Below are positions 2,276 through 51,724 of a DNA stretch of 64,000 nucleotides, piece by piece. Every line of letters begins with the position of its first letter. The first letter of the stretch is position 1. Under the pieces are notes generated by a model. It was not told the origin of the DNA, made no database searches, and was given only the letters and a program-made list of their open reading frames with translations. The translations under genes were made by a program, and so were the position numbers. Source of the stretch: Candidatus Limnocylindria bacterium (GTDB lineage: Bacteria; Chloroflexota; Limnocylindria; QHBO01); NCBI GenBank assembly GCA_035759945.1, contig DASTTX010000160.1, forward strand, positions 22,004 to 86,003, written 5' to 3'.

Positions 2276-2917
2276 TCAGGCCGGAGCGGCGTTGACGCGA
2301 CGGATGACCGGCGTGTCGCCACCGAGGCCGATGAGGCTGTAGCCGGCGGGATCCTGCGCCAGCCGGTCGCGGTAGTCGCGCATCGGCCAACCCAGCAGGG
2401 CACATAACCGAAGTCGGTTCACGTGGTTGTGAGCCACGACGATCGCACATCGGGCACGGTCCTCCGCAAGCCAGGCCTCGAGCGGCTCGAGTATCGCGAA
2501 GGCCCGCAATGCAACATCCGCGCCACTTTCGCCATCGGGGCAGCTGGTCGCGTACGGGTCCGCCTCCCACGCGGCGCGAAGCTCCGGGTCCCGAGCGTGA
2601 CATTCCTCGGCGGTCAGCCCGTCCCAGGCGCCGTAGTCGATCTCCGTCAGCCGGTCGTCGATCTCGACCGCATGCTCCGGAATCCCCAGCGCGGTCGCGA
2701 TCGGCGCGGCCGTCTGCCGGCAGCGGAGTGCCGGGCTGCTCAGCAGCCGGAGCTCGTCGTGGGGCAGCTCGGCCAGCTCGGTCGACAGCGTCTGGGCCAG
2801 GCGGGCCGCCAGGTTCGCGCCCTCGGTGGCCAGTGGCGGGTCGTCGCTCCGACCGAGATTGCGGCCAGCGGCCGAGGCGGCCGTGGTCGAGTGACGCACC
2901 AGGATGAGGCTGCCCAT
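2276..2917 (-). CDS. Histidine phosphatase family protein (phosphoglycerate mutase-like)
   Basis: N-terminal LILVRHSTT (RHG-type catalytic His motif) and a downstream conserved His (VVAHNHV). Length is 213 aa. Confidence 0.75.
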   Translation of the reverse strand: MGSLILVRHSTTAASAAGRNLGRSDDPPLATEGANLAARLAQTLSTELAELPHDELRLLSSPALRCRQTAAPIATALGIPEHAVEIDDRLTEIDYGAWDGLTAEECHARDPELRAAWEADPYATSCPDGESGADVALRAFAILEPLEAWLAEDRARCAIVVAHNHVNRLRLCALLGWPMRDYRDRLAQDPAGYSLIGLGGDTPVIRRVNAAPA

Positions 2918-2937
2918 GGGCCTGCGAGTCTAGCCGG

Positions 2938-3666
2938 GTGGTGCGCTATTCTGTCGCGGCCGTCCCCCGCAGCCCAGGCGTCATGACCTACGTCCCCGAC
3001 GACACTGACACTTCCGGCGCGCCCGCCACCGGCGAGCGCGCCGGTTCGCGCCGTGCCCTGGGATGTGCCTTCGAGATCGTCGAGACGCTCGTCCTGACCC
3101 TGCTCATCTACCTCGTCATCCACAATTTCGTGGCCCAGCCGTTCGAGGTGCAGCAGACGTCGATGTTCCCGACCATCGCCGACGGGGAATACATCCTCAT
3201 CGACAAGCTGACGGTCCGTTTCGACGGCTATCACTACGGCGACGTGGTCGTCTTCAACCCGCCGTCCAGCTCCGGGCTGTCAACCGATGGCGTCCCGTTC
3301 ATCAAGCGCATCATCGGCATGCCGGGCGACACGGTCAGCCTGGAGAACGGGCGCGTGTTCGTCACGCAGCCGGGCAAGAATCCCGTCCGCATCGACGAGC
3401 CCTACGTGCGCAAGACCGATTCGGGCGAGACTTCGCCCACCATCTGCACCCGACCCGATTGCCCGTTGAGCTGGATCGTGGGCGAGCACGAGTACTTCGT
3501 GATGGGCGACAACCGGCCCTCGAGCCAGGACTCGCGCGTCTTCGGGCCGGTCGACGAGGACCTCATCCTGGGTCGCGCCTGGCTGCGCTACTTCCCGCTC
3601 GAGCGCGTCGGACTGATCGAGCGCCCGGACTATCCGGCGTTGGACACGGTGACGGCGGGGAACTAG
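2938..3666 (+). CDS. lepB: Signal peptidase I
   Basis: Catalytic Ser box SMFPT, KR box FIKRIIGMPGD, box E GDNRPSSQDSR, and an N-terminal TM segment. The track start at 2938 is GTG. ATG at 2983 (MTYVPDD) is an alternative start. Confidence 0.85.
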   Translation: MVRYSVAAVPRSPGVMTYVPDDTDTSGAPATGERAGSRRALGCAFEIVETLVLTLLIYLVIHNFVAQPFEVQQTSMFPTIADGEYILIDKLTVRFDGYHYGDVVVFNPPSSSGLSTDGVPFIKRIIGMPGDTVSLENGRVFVTQPGKNPVRIDEPYVRKTDSGETSPTICTRPDCPLSWIVGEHEYFVMGDNRPSSQDSRVFGPVDEDLILGRAWLRYFPLERVGLIERPDYPALDTVTAGN

Positions 3667-3682
3667 CCGCGGGTCCGCGTGG

Positions 3683-4150
3683 TCAGGTGCGGGCCGGCTC
3701 CTCGGCGACGATCCACGCATCGATCTCGCGCTCGTAGGAGACGAGCGCATCGGCCCCGAACCACAGCGCCAGCTCGGACTCCGCCGTTTCGGGCGCGTCC
3801 GACGCGTGGATGAGGTTGCGGAGGCCGCTGATGCCCAGATCGCCGCGGATGGTGCCCGGCTCCGCCTCGTTCGGCATCGTCTTGCCGACCATCTTGCGGA
3901 CCACGGCGATCGCATCCGGCCCTTCCAGGGCGAACGCGGCGACCGGCCCGGAGGTGATGAACTCGACGAGGCCCGCGTAGAAGTGCTTGCCGGCGTGGAC
4001 GGCGTAATGCTCCTCCGCCATCTCGCGGGAAACGGACAGCAGGCGCAGTCCGACGACCTTCAGGCCTTTGCGCTCGAAGCGGCCGATGATCTCGCCGATG
4101 AGGCCGCGCTGCACGGCGTCGGGCTTGGCCAGGACGAGGGTGCGCTGCAT
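3683..4150 (-). CDS. ndk: Nucleoside diphosphate kinase
   Basis: Begins MQRTLVLAKPDAVQRGLIGEIIGRFE. The catalytic His motif is NLIHASD. The long N-terminal extension in the track ORF is GC-rich read-through. The real ATG at 4150..4148 overlaps the upstream stop (TAATG). Confidence 0.9.
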   Translation of the reverse strand: MQRTLVLAKPDAVQRGLIGEIIGRFERKGLKVVGLRLLSVSREMAEEHYAVHAGKHFYAGLVEFITSGPVAAFALEGPDAIAVVRKMVGKTMPNEAEPGTIRGDLGISGLRNLIHASDAPETAESELALWFGADALVSYEREIDAWIVAEEPART

Positions 4151-4959
4151 TACGAAGTACGTCTCCCGGTGCGAGTGGATCGGCTCCGGCGGTTCGCGGC
4201 GCGGTCGTAGGCGTCGGTGGCCTCGACGTCGCGGCCCGCGGCACGGAGCAGGTCGCCGTAGAGTAGCAGACGCTCCCTCGCCGCCTGCCGGCCGAGGGTC
4301 GGCTCGATGATGGCCACGCCGTCGGAGGCGAGGGCCGGATCGAGCCGGACCGCAAGCGACATCTCCGAGTCGCCGCGCGCGAGGTCGCCTGCGACATACG
4401 CGACGCGCGCCTCCTCGAGCCTGGCGCGCCCGGCCGCGACGCGCTCGTCGTCCGGAGCGGGGCCACCTTCCCCGTTCGCCTCGGGAGCGGGCTGCGACCA
4501 TGGCGGCCGCACGGGCTCGGCCGAGGCGGGGCGGACGGCGCTCGGTAACGGCCACGCCAGGCGACCCTCGACGCCGCCGCGCAGCGCGAATGCCTCGTCG
4601 ACCCCGATGGCGGCCAGCAGCCGCTCCTGGGCGCCAGCCGCGCGATCCGCCTCCCCGGCGTTCGCGAGCGTCTCGGCGTCGATCAGGAGCGACATGGGCA
4701 GACGCCGCTGCGGGCTCGACGGCCGGATGCCGTCCAGCGCGTGGCGGGCCGAGATCGACCGTCCCTGGCGCCAGAGCGCCTCGGCCAGCAGGAGCCGCAG
4801 GGCATCGGCCTCGTCGTCGGCACCACCATCGGCCTCGATCCGTGCCAGGCGTCGACGCAGCGTGCCCTCGGCCAGCGACGAGAGGCCGGCGTCGATCTGG
4901 GCGCGCCCGAGGCCAAGCTCATCGGCGACAAGGTCGATGAGGTGTGGGTCGTCGGTCAC
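4150..4959 (-). CDS. Hypothetical protein, TPR-like C-terminus
   Basis: This is the 3' part of track ORF 4150..5628; only the portion downstream of the M16 stop can be real. GTG at 4959..4957 overlaps the M16 TGA (GTGA coupling). There are no recognisable catalytic motifs. An alternative start is M at ~4695. Confidence 0.4.
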   Translation of the reverse strand: MTDDPHLIDLVADELGLGRAQIDAGLSSLAEGTLRRRLARIEADGGADDEADALRLLLAEALWRQGRSISARHALDGIRPSSPQRRLPMSLLIDAETLANAGEADRAAGAQERLLAAIGVDEAFALRGGVEGRLAWPLPSAVRPASAEPVRPPWSQPAPEANGEGGPAPDDERVAAGRARLEEARVAYVAGDLARGDSEMSLAVRLDPALASDGVAIIEPTLGRQAARERLLLYGDLLRAAGRDVEATDAYDRAANRRSRSTRTGRRTS

Positions 4960-33991: not shown

Positions 33992-34038
33992 TCTCACCGG
34001 TGGCGCTATTTAAACGAAGCGCGTATCGTTTCAAGCCA

Positions 34039-34791
34039 ATGAGCTTCAACCGACGCGGCCCTGATCGCCGCCCTGACCGACCGTCCCGCGACCGATCCGA
34101 CCGTCCGCCGCGGCGGGGAGGCGATTTTCCACCGCGCGAGGGCGACCGTTCGTACCCCCCTCGGGACCGCGGTGGCGACCGCCCCTACCAGGGTGGCGGC
34201 GGGCGACCGTACAGCCCACGGCCGCGATTCGATCGACCGCCGGATGACGGCGCCATGTCGATCCGGCTCGACCCGCGCCGAGTCGGGACGCTGAAGCAGC
34301 TCGCCGCAGACGCAGGCGTCCGGCCGGGCGACCTGGTTCGACAGTGGGTCGAGGAACGCATCGATGCGGCGCGCGGCGGCGGCTCCGGCGAGGCTCCGGC
34401 AAACCTGGCGGCGCAGCTGGAGCAGCTGGCGGCGCGGGTCACCAAGCTCGAGGCAGGAGCCGGCGAGACCGCACCGCAGGCGCCGGCGCCGGTCGGCGAC
34501 GAGGCGGTCGACGCCCCGCCCGCGGCGACCAAGCGCGTGCGCCGGAATGCCGTCGCGGCAGCCCCGACCACCCAGCGCGTCGCGCTCCACGACGAGATGA
34601 TCGAGGTGCTCCGCGAGCGCGGGCCGATGTCCGCCGCCGAGCTTGCCGGCGCGATCGCCGAGCGTGGACGCTACGCGCCGCCGCGCAGCGGCAAGCCGCT
34701 CGATGCGGCCATGGTCAGCCAGCGGGTGAGCAACCCGACCTATCGGTCGCGGTTCGTGCGCTCCGACGGACGCATCGGCCTGGCGGAGTAA
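34039..34791 (+). CDS. Hypothetical protein: Arg/Pro/Asp-rich disordered N-terminus + ribbon-helix-helix-like segment + C-terminal helical domain
   Basis: ATG at 34039 (MSFNRRGPDRRPDRPSRDRSDRPPRRGGDFPPREGDRSYPPRDRGGDRPYQGGGGRPYSPRPRFDRPPDD), then MSIRLDPRRVGTLKQLAADAGVRPGDLVRQWVEERI (RHH-like). The upstream track ORF part is non-coding-like. Confidence 0.5.
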   Translation: MSFNRRGPDRRPDRPSRDRSDRPPRRGGDFPPREGDRSYPPRDRGGDRPYQGGGGRPYSPRPRFDRPPDDGAMSIRLDPRRVGTLKQLAADAGVRPGDLVRQWVEERIDAARGGGSGEAPANLAAQLEQLAARVTKLEAGAGETAPQAPAPVGDEAVDAPPAATKRVRRNAVAAAPTTQRVALHDEMIEVLRERGPMSAAELAGAIAERGRYAPPRSGKPLDAAMVSQRVSNPTYRSRFVRSDGRIGLAE

Positions 34792-34824: not shown

Positions 34825-35028
34825 CTAGTCCTCGAGGACGAACGTCACGAGGATGTTGGCCTGGAACTCGATGCCGCCGTCGCGGCTGACATTGACGCGC
34901 TGCTCCTTGACCCACGCGCTCCGGACCTGGCGCAACGTCTTGTTGGCGCGATCGATTCCCTGGCGGACCGCATCCTCGAAGCTCTCGTTCGACGTGCAGG
35001 ACAGCTCGGTGACCTTGGCAACGGACAT
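34825..35028 (-). CDS. Dodecin (flavin-binding/storage protein)
   Basis: 67 aa from ATG 35028: MSVAKVTELSCTSNESFEDAVRQGIDRANKTLRQVRSAWVKEQRVNVSRDGGIEFQANILVTFVLED. This matches the dodecin pattern (…W.eV…G.i…f.v.lkv.F.le). Confidence 0.7.
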   Translation of the reverse strand: MSVAKVTELSCTSNESFEDAVRQGIDRANKTLRQVRSAWVKEQRVNVSRDGGIEFQANILVTFVLED

Positions 35029-35088
35029 GTTTCCTCCTCGATTTGGTTGGTGGGTGCGCGACAGCGGTTGCACGGCGCGCGCCAGCGA

Positions 35089-36126
35089 TCAGCCCGCGTC
35101 GTGCGACGCCGTCCAGGCCTGGAGCTCGTCAGCGGGCAGCGCATTCACGACGATGTCCGGCGTCACGCCGCACAGGAATCCGCGTTCACACCCGACCCTG
35201 ACCCAGGCCAGCTGGCCGAGGTAATGCGCGTCGGAGTCGATCGAGACGCGGCAGCCCGATTCGACCGCCAGGCGCAGGAGCCGCTTCGGCGGATCCAGGC
35301 GGTCGGGAAGGCAGTTGATCTCGATCGCCTTGTCGAACCTCGCCGCGGCGGCGAAGACGATCTCCGCGTCGAAGGTCGACTCCGGCCGGTTGCGACGCTT
35401 GCGCTTCATGCGGCCGGTGCAGTGGCCCAGCACGTCGAGGTGCGGGTTCGCGAGGGCGGTCACCATCCGCCGGGTCATCGGCTCCGACGGCATGCGCAGC
35501 GCCGAGTGCATGCTGCCAACGACGACATCCAGGCGGCCGAGCACTTCCGGCGACTGGTCGAGCGAACCGTCCTCGTTGATGTCGACCTCGATGCCGGTCA
35601 GCAGCCGGAACGGCGCGAGCTCACGGTTGAGGCCCTCGATCTCATCGAGCTGGGCCAGCAGGCGCTCGGTCGACAGACCGTTGGCGATGGTCAGGCGCGG
35701 TGAGTGGTCGGTGATGACGAGGTACTCGTGGCCGAGCTCGATGGCCACTTCGGCCATCTCGCGAATCGTGAAGTGCCCGTCCGAGGCCTCGGTGTGCGAA
35801 TGCAGGTCCCCCTTCAGCGCGGCCCGCAGCTTCGCGGCGCCCTCGACCAGCGGCGTTCCCTCCGGGAGCGACTCGAGCCGGCGAAGGTAGACCGGCTCCT
35901 CGCCACGCAGGCTCTCCAGGATGGTCCGCTCGGTGACCTCGCCGACGCCGGTCAGCTCGCGCAGGCTGCCGTTGGCCGCGCGGACGGCCACCTCGTCCGG
36001 ACCGATCCCGGCCAGCGCCGTCGCCGCGCTCCGGAAGGCGCGGACCCGGTAGCCGGGCTCCTGCATCGCCTCCAGCAGGAAGGCGATGCGCTTCAGGTCC
36101 GCGACCGGATCGCGCGCGTCGGGCAT
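35089..36126 (-). CDS. PHP-domain phosphoesterase with N-terminal helix-hairpin-helix-like region (PolX-C-terminal-like)
   Basis: PHP metal-binding motifs DLHSHTEASDGH, VITDHS, and MHSAL and DSDAH regions. The N-terminal ~90 aa has HhH-like GIGPDEVAVRA. ATG at 36126. Confidence 0.7.
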   Translation of the reverse strand: MPDARDPVADLKRIAFLLEAMQEPGYRVRAFRSAATALAGIGPDEVAVRAANGSLRELTGVGEVTERTILESLRGEEPVYLRRLESLPEGTPLVEGAAKLRAALKGDLHSHTEASDGHFTIREMAEVAIELGHEYLVITDHSPRLTIANGLSTERLLAQLDEIEGLNRELAPFRLLTGIEVDINEDGSLDQSPEVLGRLDVVVGSMHSALRMPSEPMTRRMVTALANPHLDVLGHCTGRMKRKRRNRPESTFDAEIVFAAAARFDKAIEINCLPDRLDPPKRLLRLAVESGCRVSIDSDAHYLGQLAWVRVGCERGFLCGVTPDIVVNALPADELQAWTASHDAG

Positions 36127-36207
36127 GTGCCGCACGGTATCGCATCGGCGAGTGAGCGCGGCGGCGGCGCCCTCGAGTGGCCGATGGCTCGGCCCGGCGC
36201 TGCCGCG

Positions 36208-36383
36208 CCAGTCTATTGGCCTGAATTCACGAGAAGCCTCGCTCGCGCGCAATCCCGCCAGTTCATTGGCGCCCTCGCCGCACGAGCTTCACGCGTGCGC
36301 TGGCCTCGTGCGTAACCAGCCCCAGTAGACTGGCGCAATAGCACGCAGAACAGGCCCCCGGTGGAATAGCGCCATTGCACTGG
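36208..36383. repeat. Four copies of a ~15-bp motif CCAGTnnAnTGGCGC (three direct, one inverted) in a 298-bp intergenic region
   Basis: Copies are at 36208..36221 (CCAGTCTATTGGCC), 36258..36273 (CCAGTTCATTGGCGCC) and 36322..36336 (CCAGTAGACTGGCGC), plus 36369..36383 (GCGCCATTGCACTGG, reverse orientation). Confidence 0.5.
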
Positions 36384-36423
36384 CCCTTGCCCAGCGATGA
36401 GGCGGGTGCAACAAATCGGGTGG

Positions 36424-37362
36424 TCAGGGAATCGTGAGGACCCGAGCCGGATTGTCGATGGTCATCGCTCGGATCTCGCCCTCCCCCACCGCGGCGGTGC
36501 GGAGGGTCGGCAGGAAGTGCTGGTGCAGGTAGACGTAGCCGAAGCCGCCGTTGGCCTTGAGCTGGCGGTTGTGGCAGACGTCCTGGCTGAGCAGCACCTG
36601 GGGTGCGAAGCCGCGCTCCAGCAGCTCGACGATCGTCTCCACCAGCCGCGGCTCGAGCGCCTCCTCGGTGCCGAATCGATGGCCCAGGAAGTCGAACTGA
36701 AGGTTCGCGCCCGCGGCCAGCACGGCGAGGTAGAAGTCGAGGTCGTGATAGGAATCGGCATGGCCGATGACGACGCGGGCCGGGTCGACGCCTTCCTCGG
36801 TGAAGATCTTCAGCTGCGCCAGGCCGACCGGGGACTGCACCCCGTGGGTCGTGATCGCCATGCCGGTGCGCAGCGATGCCCGGGCCGCCGCCCGGTGCAC
36901 GCGCTCCTCGAGCGCGCTGACCCACGGCTTGTCGGTCCCGATCTCGCCGATGATGCCGGGCCGGATGCCGGTATCGGCGACCCCGCTCTCGAACTCGGCC
37001 ACGATGGCGTCGGCAAGGTCGTCGACCGACCGGCGGTCGATGAGCGCCTCGGCGGGATAGTGCGCGCCGCGATACCAACCCGTGCCCATCACGATGTTCA
37101 GGCCGGTGGCGCTCGCCAGCCGCCGGAGCCGATGCGGGTCGCGGCCGACACCGTCCAGCGTCAGGTCGACCAGCGTGCCGCCGCCTCGACGGCGGAAGTC
37201 TCGGAGCTCCTCGATCAGCGTCTCCTCGTCCGGCGTGAGCTCCCAGTAATCCCACCGCTTCTCGATGTGCCACAGGTAGATGCCGGTGTGCTCGTGGGGG
37301 AGGGTGAAGCCGAGACGATCGGGTGGGATCGGTCCGGAGACGGTCATGACGCGTGGCGCCAT
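36424..37362 (-). CDS. Phosphotriesterase-related protein (PTE/amidohydrolase superfamily)
   Basis: N-terminal binuclear-metal HxH (FTLPHEHTGI), the carboxylated-Lys region and downstream His residues (ITTHG, VIGHADS), and Asp in LSQDVCH. The overall TIM-barrel PTE pattern is present. Confidence 0.8.
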   Translation of the reverse strand: MAPRVMTVSGPIPPDRLGFTLPHEHTGIYLWHIEKRWDYWELTPDEETLIEELRDFRRRGGGTLVDLTLDGVGRDPHRLRRLASATGLNIVMGTGWYRGAHYPAEALIDRRSVDDLADAIVAEFESGVADTGIRPGIIGEIGTDKPWVSALEERVHRAAARASLRTGMAITTHGVQSPVGLAQLKIFTEEGVDPARVVIGHADSYHDLDFYLAVLAAGANLQFDFLGHRFGTEEALEPRLVETIVELLERGFAPQVLLSQDVCHNRQLKANGGFGYVYLHQHFLPTLRTAAVGEGEIRAMTIDNPARVLTIP

Positions 37363-37489
37363 CGGGACGGTCCTCCTCGGGCGGTGCGTGAGCGTCGGTC
37401 GGGATGCACGTGCCGCCGACGCATCGGTGTGGAATGGACGGGCTCATCTTGCCACCGCCGCCTTGCGGCGCGCGCTAGCCTAGACACCG

Positions 37490-38761
37490 ATGACGACCGA
37501 GCGGCGGCGCGCGACATCGGCCAACGACCTGTGGACCCACATCCAGGGCGAGCTGGACGCAGCGGCCGAGCGGCTGGGGCTCGACGACGGCATGCATCGC
37601 GTGCTGCGCGTGCCGAAGCGCGAGCTGACGGTGCACTTCCCGGTCACGCATGACGACGGACACGTCGAGGTCTACACCGGTTACCGCGTGCACCACAACG
37701 TCAATCGCGGACCGACCACGGGCGGCATCCGCTACGTGCCCGGCCTCGACCTCGACGAGGTGCGCGCGCTGGCCATGCTCAACACCTGGAAGGCGGCGCT
37801 CGTGAGGATCCCGTTCGGCGGCGCGGCCGGCGGCGTGCGGGTCAACCCGCGCCGGCTGTCCGAGAACGAGCGGCAGGGCCTGACACGCCGGTTCGCGACC
37901 GAGATCGGTCCCCTGCTGGGGCCCGACAGCGACATCCCCAGCCCCGACGTCAACACCGGCTCGCAGACGATGGCGTGGATCATGGACACGCTCTCGATGC
38001 ACCGGGGCCATACGGTGGCGGCGTCGGTGATCGGCAAGCCGCTCGCCATCGGCGGGACGCGTGGACGTCGCAGCGCCACGGCGCGCGGCGCGTTTCGATG
38101 CATCGCGGCCAGCGCCGCGAGCATGGGCCTCGAGCTGAACGGCTCGCGGGTGGCGATCCAGGGCTTCGGGCGCGTCGGCATGACGATCGCCGAGGAGCTC
38201 GCCGGGGCGGGCGTTCGCGTTGTCGCACTCGCCGACGATCGAGATGCCGTCGCCAACGAGTCCGGGATCACCGTGGATCGGGCAGTTGACTGGATGCGCG
38301 AGCACGATGCCATCAGCGGCCTGCCCGAGACAGAGCCGATGACCAAGGCCGACATTTTCGCGATCGACTGCGACGTCCTCGTCCTTGCGGGACTCCAGGG
38401 CGAAGTGACCGATGGCAACGCCGGCGCCATCAAGGCCCGCATCGTGGCCGAGGTCGCCAACGGCGGCACGACGCCAGCCGCCGACCTGGTGCTGGCCGAT
38501 CGCGGCGTGACCGTCATCCCGGACATCGTGGCCACAGCGGGCGGGACCGTGCTCGGCTACTTCGAGTGGGTGCAGGACATGCAGGCCTTCTTCTGGAGCG
38601 AGGCCGAGATCACCGCGCAGCTGGACCGGATCATGGACGAGGCGATGGGTGACATCGGGGCCATGGCCAGCGCCGAGAGGGTCGACCTGCGCAGCGCGGC
38701 GATGATGGTCGCCGTGTCGCGCGTCGCCGATGCCACGACGCTGCGCGGGCTCTACCCCTAG
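37490..38761 (+). CDS. Glutamate dehydrogenase (Glu/Leu/Phe/Val dehydrogenase family), paralog 2
   Basis: Clearly paralogous to 11750..13018 (e.g. DGMHRVLRVPKRELTVHFPVTHDDGHVEVYTGYRVHHNVNRGP vs [43 protein letters not shown]). The GGAAGG catalytic-Lys loop differs slightly. Confidence 0.9.
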   Translation: MTTERRRATSANDLWTHIQGELDAAAERLGLDDGMHRVLRVPKRELTVHFPVTHDDGHVEVYTGYRVHHNVNRGPTTGGIRYVPGLDLDEVRALAMLNTWKAALVRIPFGGAAGGVRVNPRRLSENERQGLTRRFATEIGPLLGPDSDIPSPDVNTGSQTMAWIMDTLSMHRGHTVAASVIGKPLAIGGTRGRRSATARGAFRCIAASAASMGLELNGSRVAIQGFGRVGMTIAEELAGAGVRVVALADDRDAVANESGITVDRAVDWMREHDAISGLPETEPMTKADIFAIDCDVLVLAGLQGEVTDGNAGAIKARIVAEVANGGTTPAADLVLADRGVTVIPDIVATAGGTVLGYFEWVQDMQAFFWSEAEITAQLDRIMDEAMGDIGAMASAERVDLRSAAMMVAVSRVADATTLRGLYP

Positions 38762-38857
38762 CTGACCCGCTCCGGCCCGGTTCGTGCAACCATAAGGTTC
38801 CCGCCCTATTCCAAGTGCGCGTCCGTACCAGCGGTGCGCCGATTCCACCGGAGCACG

Positions 38858-39796
38858 ATGACAACGCCAGCCTTCACGCAGCCGCGCGACCTCCTCACCG
38901 AGCTCGAGCCCGTGGCCGAACGCCTGCTCAATCGCCACCTCGGCATAGCAAGGGAGTGGTTCCCGCACGATTACGTTCCGTACTCGCTCGGACGTGACTA
39001 CGACAAGGAGCCGTGGACGCCGGACCAGCCGCGGATCAGCGGCGTCGCGCAGATCGCGTTCGAGGTCAACCTCCTCACCGAGGACAACCTGCCCAGCTAC
39101 CACCGTGAGATCCACCGCATGTTCGGCCGTGGCGACGGACCGTGGATCAACTGGGTGAACCGATGGACCGCCGAGGAGGGACGCCACGCGATCGTGCTGC
39201 GCGACTATCTCGTGGTCACGCGAAACATCGACCCGTACGCGCTCGAGCGGTCACGCATGAACCAGCTGCAGATCGCCTACGACCACGACGACGGTGGCAA
39301 TGTCCTGCGCGGCCTCGCCTACGTCGCCTTCCAGGAGCTCGCGACGCGCATCAGCCACCGCAACACCGGCCGCTACTCCGCCGATCCGGTCGCCGATCGG
39401 ATCATGGCCCGCATCGCCGCCGACGAGAACCTCCACATGGTCTTCTACCGCGACATGCTGTCGGAGGCGATGAAGATCGATCCGTCGGCCGCCGTCCACG
39501 CCATCGCCGACGAGGTCATCGGCTTCCAGATGCCCGGCGCCGGCATGGTGAGCTTCACCCGCAAGGCGGCCCAGATGGCGAAGGCCGGGATCTATGACCT
39601 GCGTGTGCACCACGACGATGTCGTCTGGCCGCTGCTCACCCACTGGGGCATCTTCGAGCTCACCAACCTCGACGCATCGGCCGAGCTCCGTCGCGAGGAG
39701 CTGCGCCGATTCCTCGTGGACCTCGACGCGCAGGCCTCGCGCTTCGAGGCGAAGCGAGCCCTCAACCTCGAGCGCGAAGCGGCTCGGGCCGGCTAG
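38858..39796 (+). CDS. Soluble acyl-ACP (stearoyl-ACP-type) desaturase, DesA1/DesA2-like di-iron enzyme
   Basis: Two ExxH di-iron motifs (EEGRHAIVLRDYL; DENLHMVFYRD) within a ferritin-like four-helix fold. ATG at 38858 (MTTPAF). The track ORF starts 8 codons earlier. Confidence 0.85.
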   Translation: MTTPAFTQPRDLLTELEPVAERLLNRHLGIAREWFPHDYVPYSLGRDYDKEPWTPDQPRISGVAQIAFEVNLLTEDNLPSYHREIHRMFGRGDGPWINWVNRWTAEEGRHAIVLRDYLVVTRNIDPYALERSRMNQLQIAYDHDDGGNVLRGLAYVAFQELATRISHRNTGRYSADPVADRIMARIAADENLHMVFYRDMLSEAMKIDPSAAVHAIADEVIGFQMPGAGMVSFTRKAAQMAKAGIYDLRVHHDDVVWPLLTHWGIFELTNLDASAELRREELRRFLVDLDAQASRFEAKRALNLEREAARAG

Positions 39797-46766: not shown

Positions 46767-46966
46767 GGGGTGGAGCCTCCCTCTGCATGGCGCAATCGAA
46801 TGGGGCGTGATGCCGCTGCACGGGCGGGCGTTCGGTGCCCGGGAGATCCCGGCTCGGACTGGGACTCGGCGACGAAGCGTACGCGGGCGGTCGCCGCATC
46901 GTCAACGGCCTGCGACCGCCCCGATGACACTCCGCGAGATTTCGTGGTGCGCCGATGCGCCGGAGC

Positions 46967-47410
46967 CTACGGCGACTCCAGCTCGACATCCGTCGCGATG
47001 AAGATCGGCCCAATTTGACAGATGGATGACCGATCACTCGCGACGGTGCCTCGGATCGTGAGCGCTTCGCCGGCGCGCACGACCTGGCCGTCATCGGTTC
47101 GCAGCTCGCGCTTGGGCATATCGAGCATCCAGCCCTCGGGATAGACGACTTCGTAACGGGTGCCATCGGCAGCCTCCACGAAGGCGCATCCGCCCTCGAT
47201 GTCGTCGAACGCCAGGATCCCGGAAATCGTGCTCGAGACGGGAGATAGCGATTTTTCGGCACCGGTTGCCGAGGGAAGCGTGAAGTCGTCACTCATGGCG
47301 GGCGTTGGCTGATCGGGGCCGGATGATTGCAGCTCATCTCCGACGCTGCACGCGCTGATGACGACAACTCCGATTGCCGCCAACAATGCCAACCCGCTCG
47401 TACGCAGCAT
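46967..47410 (-). CDS. Hypothetical lipoprotein
   Basis: ATG at 47410 gives MLRTSGLALLAAIGVVVISAC (lipobox ISAC). Mature protein is ~125 aa; no family recognised. Confidence 0.5.
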   Translation of the reverse strand: MLRTSGLALLAAIGVVVISACSVGDELQSSGPDQPTPAMSDDFTLPSATGAEKSLSPVSSTISGILAFDDIEGGCAFVEAADGTRYEVVYPEGWMLDMPKRELRTDDGQVVRAGEALTIRGTVASDRSSICQIGPIFIATDVELESP

Positions 47411-47641
47411 GCGACGAGTGTAGGCGCCCTCGCCGGAGCGACAAATCGATCCGCGGTGCGCTCGGGCGGGGGCGATGCGACGCGGGCCGCCGGCCCCGGC
47501 CGGGAACCCGGGCCGGCGGACGCAGGGCACGCTCTCCGCGTCGCATTCCCCGCTCCGAACCATCTTGCACACCGCCGATTACCAGCCGCTTACTGGACCA
47601 TGACTGGTCGGAGAGCGGCTCGGCGCCGCTCTCCACGCCGG

Positions 47642-50926: not shown

Positions 50927-51724
50927 TCCCTGCTTGATGGCGGCGACCAGGTCGCCGGCCTCCTCCATCGCCGCCGCGCGCGAGTCGACCGCAACGAGCG
51001 AGGCAATGCCGAACACGGCCGGCGGCAGCTCCACCATCCCGAGGGTGAAGGCGCCGACGCCGTTGACGTGCGTGCCCGGCCTCAGCCAGGTGGCCTCGAA
51101 CACCGGCGTCGACGACGTCGTCGCGCAGGCCACCACATCGGCCTCGCGCACGGCCTCCTCGGCGGTGGCGACGGCGCGGACCTCGATCCCGGTCGTCTCG
51201 GCCATGCGCGACGCGAAGGCCTCGCGCGCGTCCGGCGTTCGGGCGTGGACGAGGACCCGCTCGATCGAGCACGCGGCCAGGATGGCGCGAACCTGCCACT
51301 CGGCCTGCCCGCCGGCACCGATCATCGCCAGCGTGCGAGCGTCGGGCCGCGCCAGGAGGCGGGTCGCCACGCCGGAGGCCGCGCCGGTCCGCATCGCCGT
51401 CAACGTCGCGCCATCGATCAGGGCCACCGGTCGCCCCGTCTTCGCGTCGAACCAGACGACGACCGCCTGGACCGTGGGCAGCCCTCGACCGGCGTTGCCG
51501 GGCATGACGGTCACCAGCTTCACGCTGGATCCGGCGCCGCCCTCCCGGACGCCCGGCATGAGCAGCAGGTCGCCCTCGTCGAGGGCAACGCGCGACCGGA
51601 TCGGCGAGCGGTCACGGCCGGCAGCCACATCGCGGTAGGCGGCCTCGACGGCGTCGAGCATGTCGCCGATCGGCACCGCGGCACGAATGGCATCGGCGTC
51701 GAGGAAGGGCAGGGCGTCGGTCAT
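50753..51724 (-). CDS. Ornithine cyclodeaminase / mu-crystallin family protein
   Basis: 323 aa from ATG 51724 ([22 protein letters not shown]...), with the Rossmann motif MIGAGGQAE and an overall OCD/mu-crystallin pattern. The longer track ORF is read-through. Confidence 0.85.

Follow-up and report, generated by a model that had tools for sequence, protein, structure and literature searches.

A dyad-symmetric 178-bp module of four palindromes at a variable gene junction in Candidatus Limnocylindria, tentatively read as a protein-docking array

Several bacterial systems gather short palindromes or repeats within a small stretch of DNA. Cooperative multi-operator regions include the gal operators OE and OI (~113 bp apart), lac O1 and O3, and the four HipB operators of hipBA; iteron and centromere-like arrays include parC and the omega-binding heptad arrays of plasmids; res and hix are sites of serine recombinases, enzymes that use inverted half-sites around a 2-bp core; and ERIC/IRU-type and other bacterial miniature inverted-repeat transposable elements (MITEs) are long imperfect palindromes in transcribed spacers. 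REPs (repetitive extragenic palindromes) are palindromic units of 20–40 bp (PMC3733652), known also as clusters (bacterial interspersed mosaic elements, BIMEs) and as REPINs, hairpin-forming REP doublets mobilised by RAYT transposases (PMC3733652, PMC3116915, PMC3337134). Here we describe a 178-bp module of four palindromic sites at positions 36207..36384 of a 64-kb stretch of DNA (hereafter the window, meaning the whole stretch analysed; G+C content 70%), which gene similarity places in a genome of Candidatus Limnocylindria (Chloroflexota). The module lies in the 297-bp gap between a gene for a phosphotriesterase-family (PTE) protein and a gene for a PHP-domain protein, both on the minus strand, and is not assigned to any named family. 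By analogy it would work most like the cooperative multi-operator regions, and it looks most like REP/BIME/REPIN architecture. We tentatively favour the view that it serves as a homotypic array in which each of four sites on duplex DNA docks a dimeric, sequence-specific DNA-binding protein, upstream of the putative promoter for PHP and the following dodecin gene.

All four sites are 14-bp palindromes of the form GCCAGT-NN-ACTGGC that can be extended to 18 bp (consensus GCGCCAGT-NN-ACTGGCGC). Recognised by motif match, they are site 1 (GCCAGTCTATTGGC, 36207..36220; S4 in the direction of the genes), which is closest to the PHP start, site 2 (GCCAGTTCATTGGC, 36257..36270; S3), site 3 (CCCAGTAGACTGGC, 36321..36334; S2) and site 4 (GCCATTGCACTGGC, 36371..36384; S1), closest to the PTE stop. 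All eight half-sites are GCCAGT with at most one change each, and the central dinucleotides of the four sites all differ (GC, CT, GA and AG). The strings listed in a first-pass annotation of this DNA are indeed present: CCAGTCTATTGG at 36208, CCAGTTCATTGG at 36258, CCAGTAGACTGG at 36322 and CCATTGCACTGG at 36372, the last with reverse complement CCAGTGCAATGG. Its 15-bp motif is repeated as described, although each unit is in fact a palindrome of 14–18 bp, and its four copies stand, not as three direct and one inverted but as two sites and two mirrored sites about position 36295.5. The start-to-start spacing, given there as about 50–60 bp, is exactly 50, 64 and 50 bp. Strand-matches to CCAGTNNANTGG number five in the window, all of them at the four sites, against an expectation of 0.23 ± 0.55, and none of 100 shuffles reached five. 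No excess of GCCAGTNNACTGGC was found elsewhere in the window, where sequences with at most two mismatches numbered 5 (3.3 expected) and those with at most three numbered 37 (35.6 expected).

The sites and their spacers together follow a 14-36-14-50-14-36-14 geometry that is dyad-symmetric about 36295.5, as sequence analysis and its recurrence in two other loci attest. The module is identical to its own reverse complement at 104/178 positions, compared with 47 ± 8 in shuffles, its axis is the strongest 178-bp dyad of the whole window (52/89 pairs, z = 5.3), and the symmetry stops precisely where the outer sites end. Sites 1 and 3, and sites 2 and 4, are inverted pairs that are 93% and 88% complementary respectively, and the inverted repeat that the annotation had proposed between its third and fourth copies was confirmed, having 23-nt arms that are 74% complementary. 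Symmetry extends into the spacers. The 36-bp sp3 (36221..36256) contains a conserved sub-motif, CTCGTGAA / TTCACGAG, which mirrors a similar motif in the 36-bp sp1 (36335..36370); the sp1 core, TTCCACCGGGG, is kept in both of the other loci; and the invariant mirror columns of the two spacers include C22-G157, C24-G155 and G27-C152. The 50-bp central spacer, sp2 (36271..36320), holds a perfect 8-bp inverted repeat, CGCACGAG (36279-36286) and CTCGTGCG (36305-36312), centred on the dyad axis.

A module of the same layout occurs at the same junction in two further Limnocylindria loci, L011 (1160..1337), from the metagenome-assembled genome JBPCOK01, and L219 (1219..1396), from sample JGI 3300080630, with a geometry identical to that of the window. 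These loci are well diverged: the PHP protein of L011 is 76% identical to that of the window and 74% identical to that of L219, while L219 and the window share 92% by global alignment and 92–94% by BLASTP. In both, the palindrome is CTCGAT-NN-ATCGAG (site pattern CTCGATNNATCGAG), conserved in its half-sites and free at its centre just as in the window, and the L011 module matches its own reverse complement at 116/178 positions. MAFFT aligns the three 178-bp modules without any gap; hence the 122 bp of spacer contain zero indels at 43–48% identity, while the flanks vary freely, leaders and trailers ranging from 6 to 80 nt. Between L011 and L219, site positions are identical at 44/56 (79%) compared with 54/122 (44%) of spacer positions (Fisher p = 2e-5), so it is the sequence of the sites that is constrained and not merely their ability to pair. 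In the comparison of the window with either locus the pattern is reversed: the sites agree at only 18–19/56 positions, the random level, whereas the spacers agree in register at 52–58/122, against an expectation of ~27% (p = 0.002 to 3e-5), and of 13 shifts compared register 0 scores highest. The sites have thus been re-specified within a homologous scaffold whose spacers still show weak homology. The scaffold is shared, its spacing has not shifted by even one base pair, and all four window sites carry a different palindrome. Across lineages the half-sites form a stepwise series: CTCGAT, GCCGAT, GCCAAT/GCCAGT and GCCACT. Spacer types at the junction are distinguished as GCCAGT, CTCGAT, GCCGAT/CCGAAA, GGCCA-N5-TGGCC and compact. 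The array is a real feature of this DNA, statistically solid and architecturally conserved. Elsewhere in L011 (3402-3475), three exact copies of CCGGTCGCCACCGG stand 30 bp apart, and are probably a 10-residue repeat in a coding region.

The junction that holds the module is hypervariable among relatives. Where the PHP protein is 95–97% identical to that of the window (L001, L081, L082, L084 and L085) the spacer is ~185 bp long and not homologous to the window spacer, even though the flanking DNA of L001 is 95% identical to the window. Relatives at 92–93% whose junction sequence was read have spacers of 13–16 bp in most cases (L206-L218; P0017, P0031, P0015), with longer ones in L219, where the module fills all but 6 nt on either side of a 190-bp spacer, and in L266 (PHP 92%), where a 258-bp spacer contains five sites. 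At 88% identity, the P0063 locus has a spacer of 4 bp, as judged from gene coordinates only; at 76%, the four-site module of L011 occupies a spacer of ~285 bp; and other lineages have ~8–25 bp, or 66–215 bp of various sequence. The longest spacer, 1.6 kb, belongs to L029 (PHP 66%), where a MerR-like regulator (125 residues) and a 378-residue membrane protein are inserted between PTE and PHP (2420-3990 of that locus), showing that the junction also takes gene-sized insertions. In all, an expanded spacer occurs here in 13 of the Limnocylindria loci inspected. Besides the four-site modules, alleles exist with one palindrome (L013), three (L007 and L008, 52 bp apart) or five (L266, with spacings of 25, 25, 52 and 52 bp that include fresh tandem copies), most of these palindromes being ~25 or 50–52 bp apart. 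Three near-identical 25-bp tandem repeats at 954-1030 of L266 each contain a perfect palindrome, CCGAAATTTCGG, and are followed by two related sites at 52-bp steps; in L007 (3825-4000) and L008 (3820-4000), the palindromes are GCCGATATATCGGG, GCCTCATATTCGAGGC and CCCGATAGATCGGC, and the middle one lies at the apex of a long predicted hairpin. The window motif itself was found in none of 80 orthologous loci, and no module-free version of the spacer shared by the window and L011 was found in L220, L013 or L009.

The closest relatives differ from the window in one further respect. The N-terminus of the window PHP protein, MPDARDP, matches the 92% clade and not the nearest relatives, which suggests a recombination tract across the junction. 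A metagenome contig whose PHP gene is 98% identical (L265) breaks at its position 1 within the 5' end of that gene, so that the assembly stops at the very edge of the variable junction. The P0014 locus lies at the end of a contig, and the PHP protein of the window itself was not found among protein records. In Streptosporangiales, PHP orthologues (L062, L047 and L080) have several TACCGT/ACGGTA-type repeats in a divergent spacer, ~180 bp upstream.

We infer protein binding, cooperativity and an influence on PHP from the comparison of these sequences, and the proposed mechanism is as follows. Each 14-bp palindrome would take one dimer, which would contact six base pairs per half-site and leave the central two untouched, and the protein would be encoded elsewhere in the genome. 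Given the exact 50/64/50 spacing, bound dimers could assemble into one higher-order complex, which would sit between the PTE gene and a promoter-like GATAC(C/T) element that closely precedes the start of PHP, and might thereby set the share of PHP-dodecin expression that comes from read-through as against a promoter near PHP. The lineage-specific half-sites (GCCAGT, CTCGAT, GCCGAT and CCGAAA) would then correspond either to binders of shifted specificity or to different binders, since the palindromes themselves differ by lineage. Alleles with one, three or five sites, together with the fresh 25-bp tandem copies in L266, fit the way in which binding-site clusters evolve, and mirror symmetry on invariant columns without a G:U bias fits symmetric protein contacts on duplex DNA. 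The likeness to multi-operator regions lies in the several copies of one short palindrome in a spacer beside a promoter, in the conserved half-sites with a free centre and, for gal in particular, in the distance between alternate sites of the module, 114 bp or ~11 helical turns. The module differs from those regions in lacking a linked regulator gene, in being dispensable in close relatives, in its variable distance to the start codon, in the dyad symmetry of the whole module, spacers included, and in a palindrome that varies by lineage while the spacing is frozen. It resembles the iteron, parC and heptad arrays in that the number and arrangement of short repeats vary beside a promoter and can grow by tandem duplication, as in L266; it is unlike them in its chromosomal housekeeping locus without partition genes, and in having palindromes ~50 bp apart in place of adjacent direct repeats.

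The promoter-like element lies in the 80-nt trailer between the module and the PHP start codon (36127..36206, minus strand), which is homologous to the L011 trailer (z = 3.7). In the window the trailer closes with GCGATACCGTGCGGCAC-ATG; a -10-like GATACC/TACCGT stands at 36134-36141, and the ATG lacks a Shine-Dalgarno sequence. A GATAC(C/T) element is found 7–9 nt ahead of the PHP start even in compact spacers: L216, one of the compact relatives, retains CGCGATACT-N7-ATG, and the expanded L266 retains GCGATACT-N7-ATG, that is, GATACT nine nt ahead of the ATG. Many actinobacterial and Limnocylindria orthologues (L030-L080, last 20 nt of the spacer) have -10-like hexamers, such as TACGGT, CACGAT, GATACT and CATACT, ~7 nt before the PHP start without a Shine-Dalgarno sequence. 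The missing Shine-Dalgarno sequence and the position of these hexamers suggest that the PHP transcript is leaderless. On the other side of the module, the 39-nt leader from the PTE stop codon (36385..36423, minus strand) is not alignable to spacers of the L001 type.

An operator array for the PHP gene was the first of three possibilities raised by the annotation, and remains the best-supported class in view of the palindromes, the six conserved positions per half-site, the free centre and a spacing frozen in three diverged lineages. It is not, however, a conserved PHP operator, a candidate we reject because the motif is missing from the orthologous loci and because even the L001 spacer is non-homologous. 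Several observations weigh against the docking array as a whole. The nearest relatives lack the sites altogether, so the module is dispensable. Its last site stands 80, 54 and 6 nt from the PHP start in the window, L011 and L219, and this unconserved distance argues against a classical, position-dependent operator. No regulon is visible, since the motif is not found upstream of other genes of the window; a consensus scan of the locus found no sigma-70-type promoter or terminator; the dyad symmetry of the spacers is not required by an operator array; and modules of the exact 14-36-14-50-14-36-14 type number only three. Nor was a candidate binder, or cognate regulator, found near the locus. The only conserved DNA-binding gene nearby (34255..34791, plus strand) encodes a 178-residue protein in which a variable linker rich in Pro and Ala joins a ribbon-helix-helix (RHH)-like N-terminus (MSIRLDPRRVGTLKQLA...) to a HARE-HTH domain at the C-terminus. 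Its RHH and HARE-HTH parts are nearly invariant in Limnocylindria across all spacer types, so the protein does not track the motif, and we reject it as a co-varying binder.

A more specific proposition, which we regard as doubtful, is that of a new type of locus-bound cis-element in which a scaffold rigid to the base pair carries four (elsewhere one to five) docking palindromes that are re-specified in concert between lineages, implying a co-evolving pair of binder and site. A domesticated recombinase or transposase could be the binder, or else a regulator family subject to diversifying selection; either would act at one housekeeping junction of uncultured Chloroflexota.

Among rivals of the docking array the best survivor, though a rather unlikely one, is a mobile or selfish palindromic element, non-autonomous and low in copy number, that resembles MITEs or REPINs and has settled in the spacer. 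Here the palindromes would be terminal and subterminal sites for a trans-acting transposase or recombinase, and the sites of each sub-family would co-evolve with their enzyme. The module is in fact a discrete unit with the symmetry confined between its outer edges, its outer sites are inverted copies of each other and thus terminal inverted repeats, and with its 178 bp and its two-plus-two inverted order of sites it recalls element ends that each hold a pair of binding sites. Among relatives with 92–97% identical flanking genes the module is variously present, absent or replaced; its close fit in L219, and its position in the window 22 nt further than in L011 from a landmark in the shared trailer, are as in independent insertions; the sites are conserved and the spacers free, as if mobility alone were selected; and a single long hairpin is the predicted fold of most other expanded alleles too. 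Soil Limnocylindria (CSP1-4) are also described with raised transposase density and long spacers (PMC13212565), a point in favour. The annotation's suggestion of a miniature repetitive element is nevertheless not supported by the DNA scanned. The relatives' DNA scanned amounts to ~0.9 Mb of high-G+C loci around the PHP gene, ~1/3 of it from Limnocylindria loci that keep the junction, and in these loci, as in the 6.4 kb of L011 and in the window, the motif, the spacer sequence and the geometry all lack a second copy, in contrast to the 13 expanded loci at this one junction. Within the DNA scanned, the motif search that the annotation had proposed genome-wide, as a means of telling a dispersed repeat from local operators, gives matches limited to the four sites in the window and no copies in the relatives' loci. 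A scan of metagenomes for the paired motif gave, among the first 120 matches listed, tandem repeats and chance matches in unrelated organisms and nothing similar to the module, a list that carries no information on dispersal. There is no target-site duplication (flanking direct repeat) at any of the three modules, the trailers of the window and L011 are homologous outside the module, and each site is a palindrome in itself, an uncommon property in sites at which a transposase binds element ends. Collections of plasmids and phages, like viral contigs, showed no similarity, and an origin in a phage or plasmid was rejected. On the DNA covered, we favour a locus-bound element over a dispersed repeat.

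The comparison with REP, BIME and REPIN architecture runs along the same lines. The module likewise nests short palindromes within a larger one, its oppositely oriented units being able to form a larger hairpin; its units are more conserved than its spacers and are lineage-specific; it follows a coding region and is flanked by genes on the same strand; and its alternation of short and long linkers recalls BIME-2. Its units measure 14–18 bp and not 20–40 bp, however, no GTAG or CGTC tag occurs in the flanks of the four sites in the window or in L011, no RAYT gene is known to accompany it, and the geometry is kept at one orthologous junction, a single locus in the DNA scanned as against tens to hundreds of copies. 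ERIC/IRU-type elements and other MITEs are similar as imperfect palindromes of 100–200 bp in an operon spacer, present or absent by strain at the same locus; the module differs from them in having neither dispersed copies nor target-site duplication in the DNA examined, no sign of compensatory change in its stem, and four internal sub-palindromes under sequence constraint.

A role as RNA, the remaining possibility raised by the annotation, is improbable. On this account the module, as part of an intercistronic PTE-PHP-dodecin transcript, would fold into a long imperfect hairpin that might make the upstream message more stable, act as a site of processing or uncouple the two genes. The element does stand right after a stop codon between same-strand genes, like REP and ERIC-type RNA hairpins, and the minus (sense) strand folds as one long hairpin at -150.8 kcal/mol. 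The z-scores are modest, however (-2.2 to -2.5 in the window, -3.2 to -3.6 in L011 and -2 to -3.5 in most other expanded alleles), and the better-folding strand differs between loci, being the sense strand in the window and the antisense strand in L011. The check by folding and covariation that the annotation had called for yields no covariation beyond shuffles: paired cells in the spacers make up 58.8%, against 59.5% in shuffles, and the covariation score is 0.249 against 0.235. Mirror mismatches of the G:T and A:C kinds are alike in number in the three modules (11/9, 5/6 and 3/7), so neither strand is favoured, and the sp1:sp3 pairing of L219 is no better than in slid controls. A hairpin needs complementarity of S1 and S4 only, not four identical palindromes, and it leaves the conserved bases beside the free centre unexplained. 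A known RNA was rejected, since Rfam gave no match at E <= 1 in 35000-37500 and none here at gathering score; a small protein gene within the module was likewise rejected, as no reading frame is common to the window and L011. Pairing on invariant columns, equal G:T and A:C mismatches and the lack of a conserved reading frame together make the symmetry a property of the duplex, and the RNA role is not supported.

We give equally little credence to a functionless relic, in which tandem and inverted duplications of a short native sequence at a recombination-prone junction have been homogenised by gene conversion between arms. The junction is undoubtedly a hotspot, with spacers of 4 bp to ~300 bp besides the 1.6-kb two-gene insertion of L029; a palindrome-bearing 25-bp unit has been duplicated in tandem recently in L266; and the CGATCG or CGCGATAC present in compact spacers is similar to one half of the common palindrome. 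Zero indels in 122 bp of spacer over three modules with free flanks is not what a neutral relic would show, nor is the far stronger conservation of sites than of spacers between L011 and L219, for gene conversion homogenises within an array and does not slow divergence between lineages.

It is very unlikely that the module is a substrate for site-specific recombination, that is, an invertible or resolvable segment whose 6-2-6 palindromes are crossover or accessory sites of a serine recombinase. The inverted half-sites around a 2-bp centre would suit such an enzyme, as would the inverted pairing of sites 1/3 and 2/4, and several dimer sites within ~115–180 bp recall res. Unlike matched res or hix sites, however, the partner sites have different central dinucleotides in both the window and L219, which would block productive exchange; the internal spacing is the same in all four sites, whereas that of res subsites is not; no recombinase domain is encoded among the annotated neighbour genes (window ~24–44 kb); and only one orientation was seen per lineage. 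Other classes are dismissed briefly: the units are too short for a CRISPR-like array and are inverted, not direct; an attC-like site is contradicted by the palindromic nature of each site, the 36 bp within site pairs and the core character of the flanking genes; and the window sites fit the restriction-type pattern CCA-N6-TGG, yet conservation spans all 12 core positions. A replication origin or terminus was rejected in the absence of a skew switch, and PADLOC gave no hits among four neighbouring proteins that would indicate a defence system context.

If the sites do dock a protein, the locus would offer a natural series of array rebuilding in which scaffold and spacing are kept while all four sites switch palindrome, and would show, in strains nearly identical to one another, the origin of an array, its growth by duplication and its loss within a soil lineage that is abundant but uncultured. 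Since close relatives manage without the module, its effect would be local and not a core mechanism. With its 178 bp the module offers a concrete bait with which to find a DNA-binding protein in Candidatus Limnocylindria, for which no genetics exists, and a way into the regulation of a PolX-like PHP protein that is widely conserved but uncharacterised. Were it instead a site-specific, low-copy palindromic mobile element, REP/REPIN-like biology would be extended to the Chloroflexota.

The flanking genes are as the first-pass annotation described them, both on the minus strand and confirmed through Pfam. The upstream gene (36424..37362) encodes the PTE-family protein of 312 residues (PF02126, 3e-69) and the downstream gene (35089..36126) a PHP+HHH_8 protein of 345 residues (NCBIfam NF005928, 1e-139), which has its HHH_8 domain at the N-terminus and is PolX-like without the polymerase core. 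The dodecin gene (34825..35073, minus strand) follows PHP in the direction of transcription, and the order PTE-PHP-dodecin is kept across Limnocylindria. The gap between PTE and PHP, which the annotation had called unusually long, is long for same-strand neighbours but is not the longest of the window. Upstream of the RHH+HARE-HTH gene, an A+T-rich patch (34012-34031) contains an inverted repeat, AAACGA-N8-TCGTTT. Three regions of 0.8–1.3 kb each (3667-4955, 46767-47641 and 50927-51720) are without a confident gene when called by G+C at the third codon position, and no tRNA or Rfam family was found in them. The window also contains, at 39176-39243 on the minus strand, a match to the Rfam family ASdes (RF01781, 'ASdes TB sRNA'; 55.8 bits against a gathering score of 40), which lies antisense within a fatty-acid desaturase gene (38834..39796, plus strand) and may merely mirror conservation of the desaturase coding sequence.

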